Shown one piece after another: positions 10,120 through 63,464 of a DNA stretch of 64,000 nucleotides. Source of the stretch: Chrysomallon squamiferum. Taxonomy: Eukaryota; Animalia; Mollusca. The position numbers were made by a program, and so were the translations under genes. Location: contig CM022674.1 in the NCBI GenBank assembly GCA_012295275.1, forward strand, positions 14,446,001-14,510,000, given 5' to 3'. The notes under the pieces are model-generated. The model searched no databases, was not told the DNA's origin, and saw only the letters and a list, made by a program, of their open reading frames with translations. Numbering within the stretch: the first letter of the stretch is position 1; each line of letters opens with the position of its first letter.

Positions 10120-37303
<27,184 letters not shown>

Positions 37304-37649: not shown

Positions 37650-40562
37650 ATGCACTTCCTTTGCAGAAGAGCTAAAGTTTTCTTACTTTTCAGAAATATT
37701 GTACGGATTAACAGTTTTTGCACGACAACCAAAATGCCATCAGCTCTTGTCCTGCTTGCAGAAGGTGCAGAAGAAATGGAAGCAGTTATTACAGTGGATG
37801 TCTTACGACGTGGCGGAGTAAATCATTATTAATTTTCGACTTTTGGCTTTAGAACGATTGTAAATGACAATGATAGCAATAACTTTTTACCGGTTCTTCA
37901 AAATTATGCCTTTCTATTGCTAAATCCAGAAGCGTCGATCAGTTATATTATTAGTATTTTTCTAATTTTAGTAATATGTTTGTTATTTCAAAGAAAATGT
38001 AAATTAGACAGGACTTTATAGTTATATTGGGTTTTACAAATTGTTTCATACTTGTATTATTTTAATAAGACATTAATTAATTTTTGAAAAAGGAAAGCAA
38101 CCATTTAATAATTCTTAAAATATAAAATTGATCTTTAGACAAGCTTCAGTTACTAAATTCATGTAAATGGTTCACCTCTTTTTGAATAAGCAGTTTTATC
38201 TAATTTCAGTTAACATTTACAAACTTCATATTCATACTCTAAAGCAGTAATATAAAACATATAAATCGCCACCACAGTTCACTAACTAAATGGCAGGTGA
38301 GATGTTAGGGTGAAATCCAACTGTTACAGTATCAAAATGAAGAGGGATTATTTGATGCTACCAAGCCCAGACCCTAATCATAACACCAGTTCTGTCCCTA
38401 AGTTCAGCTTCATAACCACACACTACTCTAACCCAGTCCCTAATCTTAAAACTCATCCTAACTCTTAAGTCTCTAACATAACACTCACCTGACTCTAACC
38501 TTCATCCTAAAATTGTAACATTAATTCAAACGCTAATTTCATAATGTACTTGATCCTGATCCTGCCCCTGTAACTCTAATCCTGATCCTGCCCCCATAAC
38601 TCTAATCCTAATCCTATCTAGAGTTCTTTAATCCTGACACTAACCTCCACCCTAAACCCTGTCCAAATCCTTACAACAACCTTAACTCTTAACATGCTGG
38701 AACAGTTGGAGATGTGTGTGTGTATTTTGTAGATAGATGTCACTGTGGCTGGCTTATCTGGACCAGATCCTGTTGTTTGTGGTAAAAATGTTCGGATTGT
38801 TCCTGACAAGAGTTTAAACGATGCTCAAAAATCAGGTCCTTATGATGCCGTAGTTTGTCCTGGTGGAAACCTGGGATCAAAAAATCTCTGTGAGGTATGA
38901 TGTGTGTGTAATGTTTGTAATGTGTTTGTAATGTTTGTGTGTAATTCTCCAGATTGAGGTGACAGTGGCCGGGGTGGCAGGACCTGAGCCTGTTCTCTGT
39001 AGTCGAGATGTGCGCATCGTCCCAGACAAAAGTTTAGACGATGCCGTCAAAGCTGGTGCCTATGATGCTGTTGTCTGTCCAGGAGGACTGAAGGGTGCTC
39101 ATAATCTGAGTGAGGTATGAGAGAGTCATTCACTGTTGTAGTGTCAAGATTGGGATAAATGTTAGCAAAAAATGAATTTTTAATTATAATGTAAGTAAAC
39201 TTGTTGCTCAGAACAATTATTTTGTTGTTTTATTTGATATAAAATGTATTTTTTGCTTTGTGGTTTTGTTTGGAGATAGGTATTTTTTTGTTATCATTGT
39301 TTTGTTGCATTTTTTTCCTTGTTTCACTGGAATTTTATGAATTTTAAAAAGTTTTTTGGAGTGTATGAGGATTTATATTGGCTTTTTTCTTTTGGTCCTT
39401 TGGGATCCTTTTTAAATATATATATTAAAGAAATGTTCTAATGTCTTATTTTATTTCCAAATGTATATTTTAAAATGTGATAATAGATATATTAGGCTAT
39501 TAATGACCAGTATTGTGATAAACACTACCAGTCTTATGATAACAGTTTTTATTTTTATAATAGTCAGCTGCTGTTGGAAATCTTCTTAAGGAGCAGGAGG
39601 CAAATGGCCGCATTGTTGCTGCAATCTGTGCTGGTAATTTCAAACTAATTTCTTATTCTTCTGCACCTCACTAAAGTAAAATATTATATATAATGCACAC
39701 TTTTATCTGTTAATAATATTATATAATTCAAGTTTTCATCTATTAATAATATTATTATATAATCCACACTTTTATCTGTTAATAATAATATTTATTAAAA
39801 TACCAGGAAAAATGTAATATTTTTAAATCATTGACTTCAGGACCAACAGCATTTCTTGCTCATGGAATTGGTAAAGGAAAAAAAATAACATCGTATCCTT
39901 CAGTTGGAGATAAACTGAAAGGTAAATATTTTTTAACAGCAGAAACTATAAATGTCATATTACATATTAATCTGTTTTGCATTGATCAAAAATATTTTAA
40001 AATTTTTAATTTCTTATTTTAAAATGTTGTGTTTTTTAGAATTACATAGAACTCTGTATTATTATATTTTAAAAGAAAATGTCTTACTCAGTTTTTGTTT
40101 ATTGATATTTTCATTTTTAATTACATCAGCATTCTTTTAAAATAAAAAAATGAAAGAAATTCTTTTACTTTTTAAAATATTGATGTAAAATTCCGAATTT
40201 ATCTTTATTTATTATTTATGTATTCATTTTATGTTGTTTTTATTTTTTTTTTAATTAATTTATGGAATTTTAGAAATATTTATTTGAGAGTTTGTATTAA
40301 TCTTTATTTTTTAAATTATATGTTTATTTTGCATTACTCTTGATTTTCATTTATTTGTTTGTTTCTCTTATATTTCATTGATATTTTAATAATTATTATA
40401 GGAACATACAAATATTCTGAGGATCGTGTTGTCATGGATGGTAAGATGATAACAAGTCGCGGTCCAGGTACAGCGTTTGAATTTGCTCTGAAAATCGTTG
40501 AAGCGATTCAGGGCAAAGAGAAAGCAAACTCTCTGGTGAAACCAATGTTGATCAAACTCTAA
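37650..40562 (+). CDS. PARK7: Protein deglycase/glyoxalase DJ-1 (185 aa from ATG 37734; 213 aa from upstream ATG 37650) with duplicated exon 2
   Basis: Exons 37650/37734-37817, 38733-38894 (2a) or 38953-39114 (2b), 39564-39633, 39841-39921, 40402-40562. Motifs [30 protein letters not shown], catalytic AAICAGPT and [14 protein letters not shown]. Confidence 0.96.
38733..38894 (+). CDS. PARK7: PARK7 exon 2a ([54 protein letters not shown])
   Basis: TTTTGTAG acceptor, GAG|GTATGA donor, 162 nt, phase 0-0, open frame. Confidence 0.9.
38953..39114 (+). CDS. PARK7: PARK7 exon 2b ([54 protein letters not shown])
   Basis: TTCTCCAG acceptor, GAG|GTATGA donor, 162 nt, phase 0-0, open frame. Confidence 0.9.
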
Positions 40563-46587: not shown

Positions 46588-49184
46588 CTACAGACTACCG
46601 GCAGCGTTTTCGTTATGTAGAATGTAGACGTTGTAAAAATTGTTGAGTTGTTCTAAAAAGATGAAAGTTAGCACAGTGTGGGGTCCCAGGCGGGCGTAGT
46701 AGGGTGTGAAACCTTTCCACAGACTGAAAAAACCCTCCTTTCTGATTGTTTTAGAAAGTACATCCTGAAAAAACACAAACATGATGTTACTTATTCACGA
46801 AAAGAGCATGTGTGTACAGTAATTAAATTTTCAGATTAATTTAAACGTCTATTTTATATATTAATTTAAAAACCATTACATTTAATGGTTAGTAATGTCT
46901 ACTTGTGTCAGTAAGAATAAATGTTCTGATAAAATTTATTAAACATTTAAATTATTATTTTGTTGTTTTGGGTATTGCATTATCATTCATAACAAAGTAT
47001 GACAACAACAGCATTGTCTACAAAACCTCTGCCACTGCTAGCTGTTCATGTCAACCACTAAGTAACCCAGCAAAAACTCTGTACATCTGCCACTGCTAGC
47101 TGTTCATGTCAACCACTAAGTAACCCAGCAAAAACTCTGTACATCTGCCACTGCTAGCTGTTCATGTCAACCACTAAGTAACCCAGCAAAAACTCTGCTT
47201 AACATTATTTCAAATTTTCAAGGTTACTGCACAAACTTTCACTGATCTCTGATGTCACTTGTAAAACACAGACAATTTATTCTGATTTATCTTTCTTCTT
47301 TTGTCGTTATAATGTGCAAACTTTTAATCTAACCATGGTGTCACTCAGTAAATGAAAAGCACAAAATGTTTGTTTGAACTTACAAAAAAAAAAAAACTTA
47401 GCAGAGCTATTTGGTGGTATTTCAAAGATAAGATGAAGAAATGAATTCGTGAATTAAGTGTGTTTGAAATCACCATTCTGTTATCTGGCAGAGTCACTAA
47501 TCCAGCGTGAATCATGTGGGATTAGTGACCACTCTGTTATCTGGCAGAGTCACTAATCCAGTGTGAATCATGTGGGATTAGTGACCACTCTGTTATCTGG
47601 CAGAGTCACTAATCCAGTGTGAATCATGTGGGATTAGTGATGGTTGACAGGTATTTGTTCTGACTGCATGCATCAGTGCACTCATTGTGTGAAAATGTAA
47701 CTTAGAAATATGCAAATGTTACCAGTGAACATCAAGGTATCAGTTTTTGTTTCATAAATAAAACACAACAAAAAGAAAATAATATTAAACTAAACTTACA
47801 AAAGCTCCAGTGTATTCTGGTTTTCCATCTATCATCCTCATGTTCTGAATTCTGTAAAATTCAGTGTAAATTGATAAACACTTGTATTAACTAAAACTTC
47901 ATCAAACACTAACATTAAAACATAATTCATAATGAATCCAATAATTCAGATAATAAGCTAGTGAATTTTTTTTAATTCTGCATTCAGTCAAAATTTAGCC
48001 ATGTTAGGTTAGTAACAGGCAGTGATGATGAAATGTGATGTTTTCCAGAGGTCACTTGAATTTGGCTACTATCTGAATACAATAAAACTTCAATTGTAAA
48101 AGACAGTAACAAAAACAACAACAACAAAAACAAGTTAGAAAAAGAGGAAAACACAATTAAAAAAACAAACAAAAAACCCCAGAAAAACAAACTGGAAAAA
48201 AAATAAATGTGAAAGGGAAGTAATTCCAAAGACCTGTACTGGGGATATGAAAAACACATTATTTTTATGTAAGTAACAAAAAGTAAGATAAAAACAAACA
48301 AGTAGAAATGTGTTACCGTGTCTTAGCAATGTCCACTGGCATGGAAGCAGCTGTTGTGATCAAACCACTGATCATACTGGCACAGAAATGTAGAAACAAA
48401 CCATCATGAAAATATCCTGAATAAATAAATAAAACACGTAATATATCTATATAACATTTTTAAAATACTGGCACAGAAATGTAGAAACAGCCCATCATGA
48501 AAATATCCTGAATAAATAAATAAAACATGTAATACATCTATATAACATTTTTAAAATACTGGCACAGAAATGTAGAAACAGCCCATCATGAAAATATCCT
48601 GAATAAATAAATAAATAAAACACGTAATATATCTGTATAACATTTTTAAAACGTAACTGGTTTACCTGTTAAATTAATTTATTAATATTAACCTGTTAAA
48701 ACAGTTATTAATTTACTTGTTAAAATAATTATTACACATGTTAAAATAATTAATTAATGTACCTGGTAACATAATTAATTAATTCACCTGTTCCTACAAG
48801 CAGCTGTTTTGCCTGTGAATATGAAGCCAGCTGTGCTGCATTGACAACCATAGCTCTACCTACAGTAGGTACACAACCCTGAAAAAACATTTTATAACTT
48901 TTATTTTATTATTCTAACATGCACGCACACACATACAGATGCAATATACATACACAATACACAAAACAAACAACAGACACACACACACCAGACATACACA
49001 CACACAAACACAGACATACACACACACAAACACACACACAAACACAGACATACACACACACACCAGACATACACACACACAAACACAGACATACACACAC
49101 ACACCAGACATACACACACACAAACACAGACATACACACAAACACAGACATACACACACACAAACACAGACATACACAAACACA

Positions 49185-49219
<35 letters not shown>

Positions 49220-50561
49220 CTACCTTACTCTCCACCTGAGTTTTAAATAAACACTTAAAGTTCACAAACAGATCTTACCCTCCATAACGTAAGTACCCCC
49301 TCCTCCTTAATAATCCGAGACAACGCATTGAAAACATTCTTGTACCCTCGTCTCTCATTTACAGGTAATCTGAAAATTAATATTCAAATCTACTCAACTG
49401 TCATTGAAATTCATTTATTTATTTATTACACAGAAAAACAAAAGTACTGCACAGATTCTGTTAGTGACTGATAAAAAAATAAAATTTAAGACTGGAAATA
49501 TTAAAAAAATAAAAAATAAAGAAATAACCATTAAAATTAAACTGCATTCAGATCACTACATTAATGTTCAGTACATGATACATGTTTATGTAATATTTAC
49601 TATATGTAAATTTTTATGTATATATCACAGAGAACAGCTGCAGAATTTTTAGTCTTTCCAAGTACATCATTAATACAAATTTATACCTGAATCATTAATA
49701 TTCATTACCTGGCAATTAAAGGTAATTATAATATGTATTACCGCCCATCTGCTGTCATTCTGATGAGTGACACCTCTGCAGGTGTTCCAACAAAGGCTCC
49801 AATGGCTCCAGCTGTTATTCCTATTCCTGCTTTCATCATGAAGTTAGGGGGCCTGTCATCCCTAAATACCAGTCATTACACAATTGTTAATTACAGTAAA
49901 CCAAGTCAATAATTCTAATAATATTACAGTTGTTTGAATTTTCTACGTTTTATCTTTTTCAAATTTTATTTGTAAGTAAAAGAAGTATTTGGAATGGCAA
50001 AAGTAAATTGATTTTTCTTGTCAGATTCTAGTAAAATACAAAATTACAAAACAAGTGTAAAATCTGCAATTTTCTTTCTCCTCACAATTTTTAATAACAT
50101 TAACAAGTTTCCTTAGTTGTTGTTGACTTATGATGGAAATATAACAAAATGTCTTAAATATATCAAATCAAAGCTATTAATAATATATCATCATATTGCT
50201 ATATATTAACTGAAACAATAAACAAAAATTATTTTATTTATCATAACTGTCTTATTTTCCATCATTCAAAAGAAACAGCTAAACTGATTTAAGCATTTTT
50301 TTTTACACAAATAAAATAAGCTAATAAATAAATAAATAAATAAAAATAAGTTAACATAATAAATAAATAAATAAACAAATACATAAATAAATGAATGAAG
50401 CTAATTTTAATTTAACTTTCTTTTAAAGGAAAACATAAATGATAAAGTTTGGTTTCTTGTGACGTACTTAGAAAACATTTCAAACAGAGTGGTGTAGATG
50501 CCCAACCGAGTAGTTGTGTAAGTAGCTTGTCTTAGAAGTCCAGCTGACAGTCTGAAACAAA

Positions 50562-50596
<35 letters not shown>

Positions 50597-51435
50597 ACAA
50601 TCAAAGAAACAAATCAAATAAATAAATAAAACAAAACAAATAAGTAATAAAAATTAAATAATAATTACAGTAGCAGTAATAATTCTATTATTCAGGAAAA
50701 TATTTTAGGTGGTAATAATAAATAAAATATAAATAAAATTATTATGGTAATAACAAAACAAAATATATTTAAACAACAAAAATAACAACAAATGAATAAA
50801 AATAAATAATAATCTGCATAAAATTATACTTTTGATTATATAAAATAAGTAAATATTCAAATAAGATTTTTGTTAAAATTACAAAATAAATAAATTTAAA
50901 GTCAGAATTCTAATACAAAAATAGTAATGACAGAAAACTGATAAAACAAAAATAGTAATAACAGAAAACTGATAAAACACAAATAGTAATAACAGAAAAA
51001 TGATAAAACACAAACCCTGTGTACATTCCTCGAAGGCCTTCATTTTTCAAAATACTTCTAATAGCGTGAAAACTAGTTTTGTGTTCCTTTGACCTGCCTC
51101 CCTCACCTTAGAAAACAAATAATAATAAAATAATTATTAAAATCTAGAGAAACAGTTCAGTACAGTTATTTGCTACATTTTATAGTAGTAATTATTTATA
51201 TATCATAATTGTTTAAAAATAAAATCCATTATCACCAGTTTAGGTTGAACATTTTTTATATGACTAAGACAAATTTAATCCATCTGTAAAGAATATAGTT
51301 TTGAGATAAACTTTTTAAATACAGTTTTGAGATAAACTTTTTATTTATTTGTTTATTTATAATAAATAAATAAATAATAAATAATTAATGATGATGAAGA
51401 AGATGATAATAACAATAACAACAACAATAATAGTA

Positions 51436-51486
<51 letters not shown>

Positions 51487-52258
51487 TTTACATATAACAG
51501 CAACTGAAACAAAGTTACAATATTATTCTACTTTTATTTTGCTAAAAAAAAAAAAAAAAAAATAGAAGAAAATTAGAAAAACTGTTTTTTCCCATCATTT
51601 CAGTGTGTAATTTCAGTTATTTATCAGTAATTCATATATATATTTTTTTTATTACTTACCACTCAGCTGCATTCTGTTCTTGACCAGGTCAAGAGGCTGG
51701 ACAAATACAGTGGCAGCCATTCTGTAAACAAAATATTTGTAATGTAGATCATGAAAAAAGCAAAATTCCAGTGTTTTTTTCATCTATTATTTTATAATAA
51801 AATATTAACAGAAATGGAAAAAGGAGGAAAAATTGCAAAAAGAAAAAGAAAATATAAAAATTTACATTTTTTAAAACACTAGGAAAAAAACAAGGTTCAT
51901 ATTTGTTTTGTATTTTTAACAAAGCATAAATATATATACATGTAAACATCATTTTGTTATAATTGCTGAATATAAATGGAATTATTAAAAAAATAAATAA
52001 TAATATATTATATTTGATGAATATAAATGAAATTATACAATAAAAGTAAATAATATTATGCAACTCTTTCTGTTTCTTGTTGGTGAAGAAAATCTGACAT
52101 ATTTGTTTAACAAATGACAGAGTAAACAAGAAGAAGTTTGGACAAAGTAAAGTCTCTGATAAGTGTTTGTCTAGCAATCATGTTGTAAAGAGGTCACTCC
52201 TTAGTTCAAACAGTATTTACTTGTTAAACTAAACAGCAAATAATGTGGCAAAATAAAC

Positions 52259-62800: not shown

Positions 62801-63062
62801 AATAAATAATAATAATAATAATAATTAAAAATATAAATAAAATAATGTTATGATGTTGCAGCTGCAGAGTCAGAACATGAAGATAGAGAATGTTTTGAAG
62901 GCTAACGACATCCAGTTTGAGTTGATAGACATCTGCACTGACACAGCACTCAGAGAGCAGATGAGGGAGAAGATGGGAGACCCCACAGCCATACCCCCCC
63001 AGATCTTCAACGGAGACAACTACTGTGGAGTGAGTTGTTTACTAATAACAGCAATAGTAGTA

Positions 63063-63110
<48 letters not shown>

Positions 63111-63464
63111 GCAATAATAATAATAATAATAACAATAATAATAGCAATAATAATAATAATAGTAGTAATAGTAATAATAACTGTAATGATCATAACAAAA
63201 ATAATTTAATAATAATAATACTAATAATAATATTAATAATAATAATTAAAATAATAAAACACAATGACAATTGTAAAAATTGAAAGAAAAAATTAGTAAT
63301 AATTGTTATACAAACAACTTAGAATCCATTTTTTTATATTAAATTTTTTATTTTTTTACATTATGTTTTTCATTTTCAAGTTTACTCTTTGTTTTCAGAA
63401 TTTTGATTCCTTTATTGAAGCAGTTGATGATGGAGTCCTTAAAGAATTTCTCAAACTAAAGTGA
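57148..63464 (+). CDS. SH3BGRL3: SH3 domain-binding glutamic acid-rich-like protein (SH3BGRL3-like, thioredoxin/glutaredoxin fold), isoform A, 92 aa
   Basis: Exons 57148-57192 (MTILVFISTIACSRK|gtcagt), 62862-63029 (LQSQNMKIENVLKANDIQFELIDI...LREQMREKMGDPTAIPPQIFNGDNYCG) and 63399-63464 (NFDSFIEAVDDGVLKEFLKLK*). Family assignment is clear; exact orthology within the SH3BGR family is less certain. Confidence 0.78.
59168..59174 (+). promoter_or_regulatory. TATA box for SH3BGRL isoform B
   Basis: TATAAAA 55 nt upstream of ATG 59223. Confidence 0.55.
59223..63464 (+). CDS. SH3BGRL3: SH3BGRL3-like isoform B, 96 aa, alternative first exon
   Basis: First exon 59223-59279 (MSGDRGVRVYVASVSSSKS|gtaaga), phase 0, resembling the SH3BGRL3 N-terminus MSGLRVYSTSVTGS. 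It joins the same exons 62862-63029 and 63399-63464. Confidence 0.85.
61912..62065. repeat. 14-bp tandem repeat ACGACAAATAAT(TC/AG), ~11 copies
   Basis: CpG-containing array inside SH3BGRL intron 1, possibly the interior of a non-autonomous transposon. Confidence 0.85.

Follow-up and report, generated by a model that had tools for sequence, protein, structure and literature searches.

Two tandem, singly spliced copies of exon 2 in the DJ-1/PARK7 gene of Chrysomallon squamiferum are likely to be mutually exclusive

The DJ-1/PARK7 gene of Chrysomallon squamiferum carries two tandem copies of exon 2 that are spliced into transcripts singly, and the two are probably kept mutually exclusive by the 38-58-nt spacer between them, which would be too short for both of its splice sites to be used at once. 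PARK7 is a Parkinson's-linked detoxifying enzyme, and the function of DJ-1 is debated, with glyoxalase, cPGA hydrolase, redox sensor and chaperone roles all under discussion. A splice switch of this type would let one gene yield two versions of the enzyme.

Structure of the locus and its two exon-2 copies

The gene lies on the forward strand of the window, the 64,000-nucleotide stretch of contig CM022674.1 that was analysed. Its membership of DJ-1/PARK7 (PF01965) is indicated by a Pfam profile match and by identity at 115 of 131 residues outside exon 2 to a named PARK7 homologue, that of the peltospirid gastropod Gigantopelta aegis (XP_041377670.1, P0003), which is the closest named protein. 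Coding exon 1 (37734-37817, 28 aa) encodes the equivalents of E15, E18 and R28, and its donor is used in 4/4 RNA runs. It is followed by alternative exon 2a (38733-38894, 54 aa), which has G47-K48 replacing S-R and carries N76, S79 and C83; a 58-nt spacer (38895-38952) consisting of the 2a donor, imperfect UG-rich repeats and the 2b acceptor; and alternative exon 2b (38953-39114, 54 aa), which keeps C46-S47-R48 and is present in every RNA run. Constitutive exon 3 (39564-39633) carries the equivalent of catalytic C106 together with A107, constitutive exon 4 (39841-39921) is present in RNA contigs, and the last coding exon (40402-40562) includes the stop codon, with the 3' UTR reaching to about 41100. 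The 2a and 2b forms each comprise a 185-aa frame with a single terminal stop, and the remaining introns of the gene are 207-1135 nt long.

An upstream in-frame ATG would open a 28-aa N-terminal extension (37650-37733, forward strand), which is an open frame with a tblastn match to residues 1-29 of the G. aegis protein. The extension is rich in Arg/Lys and contains no acidic residues, and it may be a mitochondrial targeting peptide, in which case an alternative start would give a mitochondrial form. RNA contigs from the four RNA runs begin at 37655-37702, 3' of the ATG at 37650, and many invertebrate DJ-1 homologues are 204-219 aa long.

The first-pass annotation had described two 162-nt phase 0-0 exons separated by a 58-nt repeat spacer, and this two-copy observation is confirmed: lengths, phase and open frames all agree, the acceptors are AG, the donors of 2a and 2b are identical (GTATGA), and the spacer is TG/TGTAAT-rich. 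Both exons exceed the curated cut-off of Pfam DJ-1_PfpI (PF01965), and in a homologue alignment the segment maps to primate residues 31-84, in keeping with the proposed correspondence to human DJ-1 residues ~31-84. The copies are identical at 112/162 nt, and the 50 differences fall 15, 4 and 31 times at codon positions 1, 2 and 3. Identical codons number 17 of 54; a further 20 show only synonymous differences, as had been claimed in calling such differences numerous, and 17 change the amino acid. The amino-acid changes had also been described as clustered, but the 17 changes show no more clustering than random placement would give (permutation P = 0.64 and 0.63). Exons 2a and 2b are neighbouring homologues that agree in length and phase and have canonical splice sites, the arrangement by which tandem-duplicated mutually exclusive exons are recognized.

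Five public runs cover the locus: four RNA runs from one study (X1 to X4) and X5, a run of unrecorded kind from another study. All run data consist of assembled contigs and not of raw reads; such contigs can attest that a form is present but lose rare ones. Because its cover is even across introns, X5 behaves as DNA, and it carries exons 2a and 2b on one contig, which rules out an assembly artefact. A broader reading, in which the pair reflects an assembly duplication, two alleles, or constitutively joined exons that yield a repeated protein segment, is extremely unlikely. No point in its support was found, the differences between the copies lie mostly at third positions, the DNA-like run is independent, a 2a-2b join occurs in no RNA contig, and 0/311 homologous proteins contain two copies of the segment.

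X5 differs from the window at 30 listed substitutions, of which none lies in 2a, two lie in 2b and two in exon 3, all four of these being synonymous; 26 are spread across the two long flanking introns, 1364 nt in all. In X5 the spacer is shortened to 38 nt by a deletion of 20 nt after 38900 that leaves donor and acceptor intact (one contig), and the 20-nt unit would be too short and too imperfect to have been collapsed by 31-letter assembly. Directly upstream of 2a (~38360-38700) lies a degenerate C/T/A-rich repeat tract with many YTRAY branch-like motifs, which has a 26-nt deletion in the X1 contig.

Three other features of the window were observed around DJ-1. An FHA-domain exon (36701-36946, reverse strand) belongs to an opposite-strand gene that faces DJ-1 head-to-head at a distance of about 1 kb or less, and for this reason the two genes possibly have a promoter in common. 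Several exons of a mitochondrial carrier gene (46591-51783, reverse strand) lie downstream in a tail-to-tail arrangement, and an open frame at 62841-63206 (forward strand) matches SH3BGR/glutaredoxin-like profiles.

Either-or use in RNA and the short spacer

The path from exon 1 through 2b to exon 3 (37817>38953 and 39114>39564) is present in 4/4 RNA runs, with sides of up to 160/71 letters, and the path through 2a (37817>38733 and 38894>39564) is present in 1/4 (X3), where it is carried by a single 215-nt contig with 0 mismatches and GT..AG ends. The X3 2b contig is also 215 nt long and shares its exon-1 and exon-3 nodes with the 2a contig; their depths are 17 for 2a and 28.8 for 2b, depth being a poor measure of isoform amount. 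The 2a contig extends 28 and 27 letters past its joints, below the 31-letter bar for bridging, and such short flanks would be expected where a word graph of 31 letters splits into a two-path bubble: 2a and 2b begin with the same 2 letters and end with the same 5, which makes 30 letters per side. Cover of 2a is missing in X2 and X4, which was not counted as proof of absence.

A 2a>2b join (38894>38953) is found in 0/4 RNA runs, as is a join that skips both copies (37817>39564); both counts come from assembled contigs, in which a rare double-inclusion transcript could be missed. Given that contigs drop rare forms, the result describes the main pattern and not strict exclusion. Within that scope, the mutually exclusive use proposed at the outset is supported: all four single-exon joins exist, both single-exon isoforms occur within one RNA run, and the joined form occurs in none of the four. 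The two outcomes that had been named as contradicting the proposal were that only one copy is ever included while the other evolves neutrally in related species, whereas 2a and 2b are each spliced in X3, and that the copies are constitutively joined via the 58-nt intron, whereas every RNA run lacks this form.

X1 contributes an unspliced RNA contig (37788-38894) that comprises exon 1, intron 1 and 2a, ends exactly at the 2a donor and has a depth of 7, and 2a is present in X1 solely on this contig. In the same run the intron 3' of 2b is without cover at 93% likeness. The contig, a single one, may be a hint that splicing to the 2a acceptor is slow or held back, and it is possibly a retained-intron intermediate on the 2a path. 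Low-depth pieces within intron 1 are present in X2 and X4 too.

The pair could have arisen by an ancient tandem duplication of about 200 nt, spanning acceptor, exon and donor, that left almost no intron between the copies, and because of this any branch point that 2b could use would be no more than 37 nt away from the 2a donor. Four adenosines of the 58-nt spacer are candidate branch points, at distances of 17, 26, 37 and 50 nt from that donor, and the one at 50 nt is only 8 nt short of the intron end; the 38-nt spacer has candidates at 17 and 30 nt. All of these branch points are motif guesses (GTAAT, weak consensus). In human extracts, a donor-to-branch distance of ~50 nt is reported to be required, with 35 nt abolishing assembly (PMC6692369), and branch sites are described as lying mostly 19-35 nt from the acceptor (PMC5378181). 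Flies are reported to have minima of about 35 + 15 nt, with introns of 60-70 nt being the commonest and rapidly spliced (PMC5762160). The usable candidates, at 37 nt or less, are below the human limit; by the fly limit the 58-nt form is borderline, its candidate at 37/21 nt just satisfying the minima, and the 38-nt haplotype fails even this spacing, although the limit in molluscs may differ. The 38-nt haplotype favours steric exclusion as the likely mechanism. A literature search for a minimum intron size in molluscs returned none. Frame-based decay cannot enforce the choice, as inclusion of both 2a and 2b stays in frame; retention of the spacer would bring an immediate stop, its second codon being an in-frame stop.

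An unlikely alternative is that splicing regulators or pairing within the RNA, and not the size of the intron, keep the copies exclusive, with the short spacer being incidental. This is consistent with the ability of a 58-nt intron to meet the fly spacing rules (PMC5762160), with the report that steric interference accounts for only 57/629 human mutually exclusive exon clusters (PMC5740500), and with the UG-rich tracts found 5' of both copies, CELF proteins being reported to control such pairs in C. elegans (PMC3585155). The 38-nt haplotype, however, breaks even the fly spacing, and the predicted fold of 38650-39200 does not surpass that of shuffled sequences (z = 0.15; local pairing range only). 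No UGCAUG (RBFOX) site is present between exons 1 and 3.

The choice between 2a and 2b would vary by tissue or condition, and as a lead it may be set by UG-binding (CELF-type) proteins, given that among the acceptors of this gene only those of 2a and 2b are UG-rich: the last 40 intron bases contain 9 and 8 TG, respectively, compared with 1, 2 and 1 for exons 3-5. The genome is rich in TG microsatellites, and so these tracts may carry no meaning. In C. elegans unc-32, mutually exclusive exons likewise sit beside UG-rich intron stretches (PMC3585155); the regulator there is UNC-75 (CELF), whereas regulator binding at the DJ-1 exons is a guess.

Selection, age and comparison with homologues

The first-pass annotation had called for dN/dS to be computed between the copies, and the comparison points to purifying selection. 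The pS is 0.67 and the pN 0.19, giving a pN/pS of 0.28 (bootstrap 0.15-0.45; Fisher P 3e-8), and the corrected dN/dS is about 0.13, with dS near saturation; a pairwise dN/dS leaves the date of selection undefined. At the 20 columns conserved in >=90% of 122 homologues, 2b keeps 20/20 and 2a keeps 18/20, a figure of 18 that was reached by neutral drift in 8/5000 simulations at 0.3 substitutions per site and in 0/5000 at both 0.5 and 0.8. Both copies are under coding constraint, and the dN/dS and conserved columns together indicate that the duplication is old and that both copies have been maintained.

A tree was built of the 54-aa segment from 2a, 2b and 30 hand-picked molluscan or mollusc-like rows from the 122 homologues. 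Exon 2a pairs with the G. aegis exon with a support of 88/92, which was not starred, and tree tests rejected no placement of 2a, 2b and the G. aegis exon (p-AU 0.33-0.39). This weakly suggests that the duplication is older than the split from Gigantopelta. The G. aegis protein shares N76, S79, K80 and C83 with 2a, and it also has a 28-aa N-terminal extension, but unlike 2a it keeps S47-R48; one protein is on record for this species. A single-sequence fold of this protein (pLDDT 38) was unusable.

The DJ-1 exon pair is expressed, selected and probably mutually exclusive; tandem-duplicated exons of this kind are well known. The searched literature, mostly open-access, yielded no homologous mutually exclusive exon pair in DJ-1, including in the accessible parts of PMC4573652 and PMC12070547. 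The human PARK7 transcripts described in the former comprise variants encoding the same protein, a form that skips an exon and one with an inner start, with no homologous exon pair among them, and PARK7 is absent from the main text of a survey of human mutually exclusive exons, whose supplements could list it (PMC5740500). The closest parallels are alpha-tropomyosin and OGDH 4a/4b, each described as a homologous exon pair with one exon per transcript, as here, and a branch point less than about 50 nt from the upstream donor (PMC6692369, PMC7969005). Among enzymes the precedent that comes closest is OGDH, likewise a metabolic enzyme made as two isoforms; its branch point is near the donor and far from the acceptor, whereas in DJ-1 the whole spacer is 38-58 nt, and the OGDH isoforms are reported to differ functionally (PMC7969005), whereas those of DJ-1 are known here from sequence and RNA contigs.

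A tandem second copy of the segment was found in 0/27 metagenome loci, in which coverage of mollusc genomes is thin. Among these loci the 162-nt exon is matched, with GT immediately following, only in L001 and L002, and in a vertebrate-like locus (L013) the segment is divided between two exons, in contrast to the single exon here. No second case of a swapped exon-2 segment between identical flanks turned up among 153 full-length sequences, which give 188 pairs with flanks differing by <12%; the negatives from loci and proteins are weak, as database isoforms are limited to annotated ones and cluster members were examined for 24 proteins. Two proteins flagged with two matched stretches (P0188 and P0190) contain no repeated segment.

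Other molluscs (mytilid-like, Elysia crispata, Babylonia, Mercenaria) have separate paralogous genes and not exon pairs. The mytilid-like, Mercenaria and Babylonia pairs were considered as exon swaps and rejected, as they differ throughout and are paralogues. Two whole DJ-1 paralogues are apparent in several molluscs (the P0012 and P0019 clusters; P0022/P0032; P0048/P0080; P0018/P0157), and one E. crispata copy has C-C-K in place of C-S-R. On the strength of these paralogues and of the E. crispata copy, the origin of a second, divergent DJ-1 may not have been a single event. A low-GC eukaryotic contig (L009, 31-1652) carries two whole DJ-1 domains in tandem.

The two DJ-1 proteins

Eight residues, E15, E18, R28, G74, G75, C106, A107 and P158, are listed as essential for cPGA hydrolysis (PMC12135873, Table 1). 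All are identical in both isoforms (8/8), and they are the same in human DJ-1/PARK7 and its metazoan orthologues, which belong to the same family (PF01965). The 2a and 2b proteins would both be expected to be active C106 hydrolases. The positions at which 2a departs from the family lie elsewhere: S47 is present in 121/122 homologues and R48 in 121/122, and in a wider, partly redundant set C-S-R is found in 288/311 and C-G-K in 0/311. Residues 47-56 of human DJ-1 form a dimer-contact strand (PMC11508141), and in human DJ-1 both R48A and N76W are reported to leave cPGA hydrolysis unimpaired (PMC12135873). What sets the 2a protein apart would chiefly be its surface charge and the dimer-interface strand at S47-R48, the computed pI being 8.6 with 2a and 7.7 with 2b. 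S47 and R48 may have a role in phosphate binding, for which a literature search gave no confirmation, and the point is not relied on here.

The first-pass annotation had proposed that the locus makes two biochemically distinct enzymes and that 2a gained an extra Cys, and neither proposal is supported. C83 is common in molluscs, occurring in 21/122 homologues that include Gigantopelta, Haliotis rufescens, Lottia, Patella and Mytilus; with the essential residues shared, R48A and N76W harmless in the human protein and C83 found elsewhere, distinct catalysis is unsupported. Any difference between the isoforms more likely concerns the strand at the dimer interface or some property other than catalysis, and a dimer or surface difference is plausible from the residues exchanged.

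It is quite unlikely that 2a is a relaxing redundant copy that is sometimes spliced while drifting, with both proteins doing the same job. Such drift would be compatible with the loss from 2a of both nearly invariant residues, with its long tip branch (0.26, compared with 0.014 for the G. aegis exon), with its spliced use in only 1/4 runs, X1 having it on the unspliced contig alone, and with the neutrality of R48A and N76W for human cPGA hydrolysis (PMC12135873). However, the purifying signal between the copies is strong despite near-saturated synonymous sites, 2a is without polymorphism relative to X5 (P about 0.05 at the intron rate), and the X3 depths of 2a and 2b, poor measure though depth is, are of the same order.

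Beyond the reading of 2a and 2b as singly spliced, probably exclusive alternatives, a more specific proposal can be entertained only tentatively and is more doubtful than not: that in peltospirid-like snails a conserved, tissue-regulated switch produces a second DJ-1 in which the C106 hydrolase is kept and the dimer-interface S47-R48 pair is removed. If this is true, 2a would be a natural separation-of-function isoform exposing the non-catalytic role behind S47-R48 conservation, and the 2a and 2b isoforms could form mixed dimers. With its 58- and 38-nt spacer haplotypes the locus offers a natural test, in a mollusc, of whether exons exclude each other sterically, and a segment that is swapped by splicing while the catalytic residues stay constant offers a natural paired test of the purpose of the S47-R48 motif.
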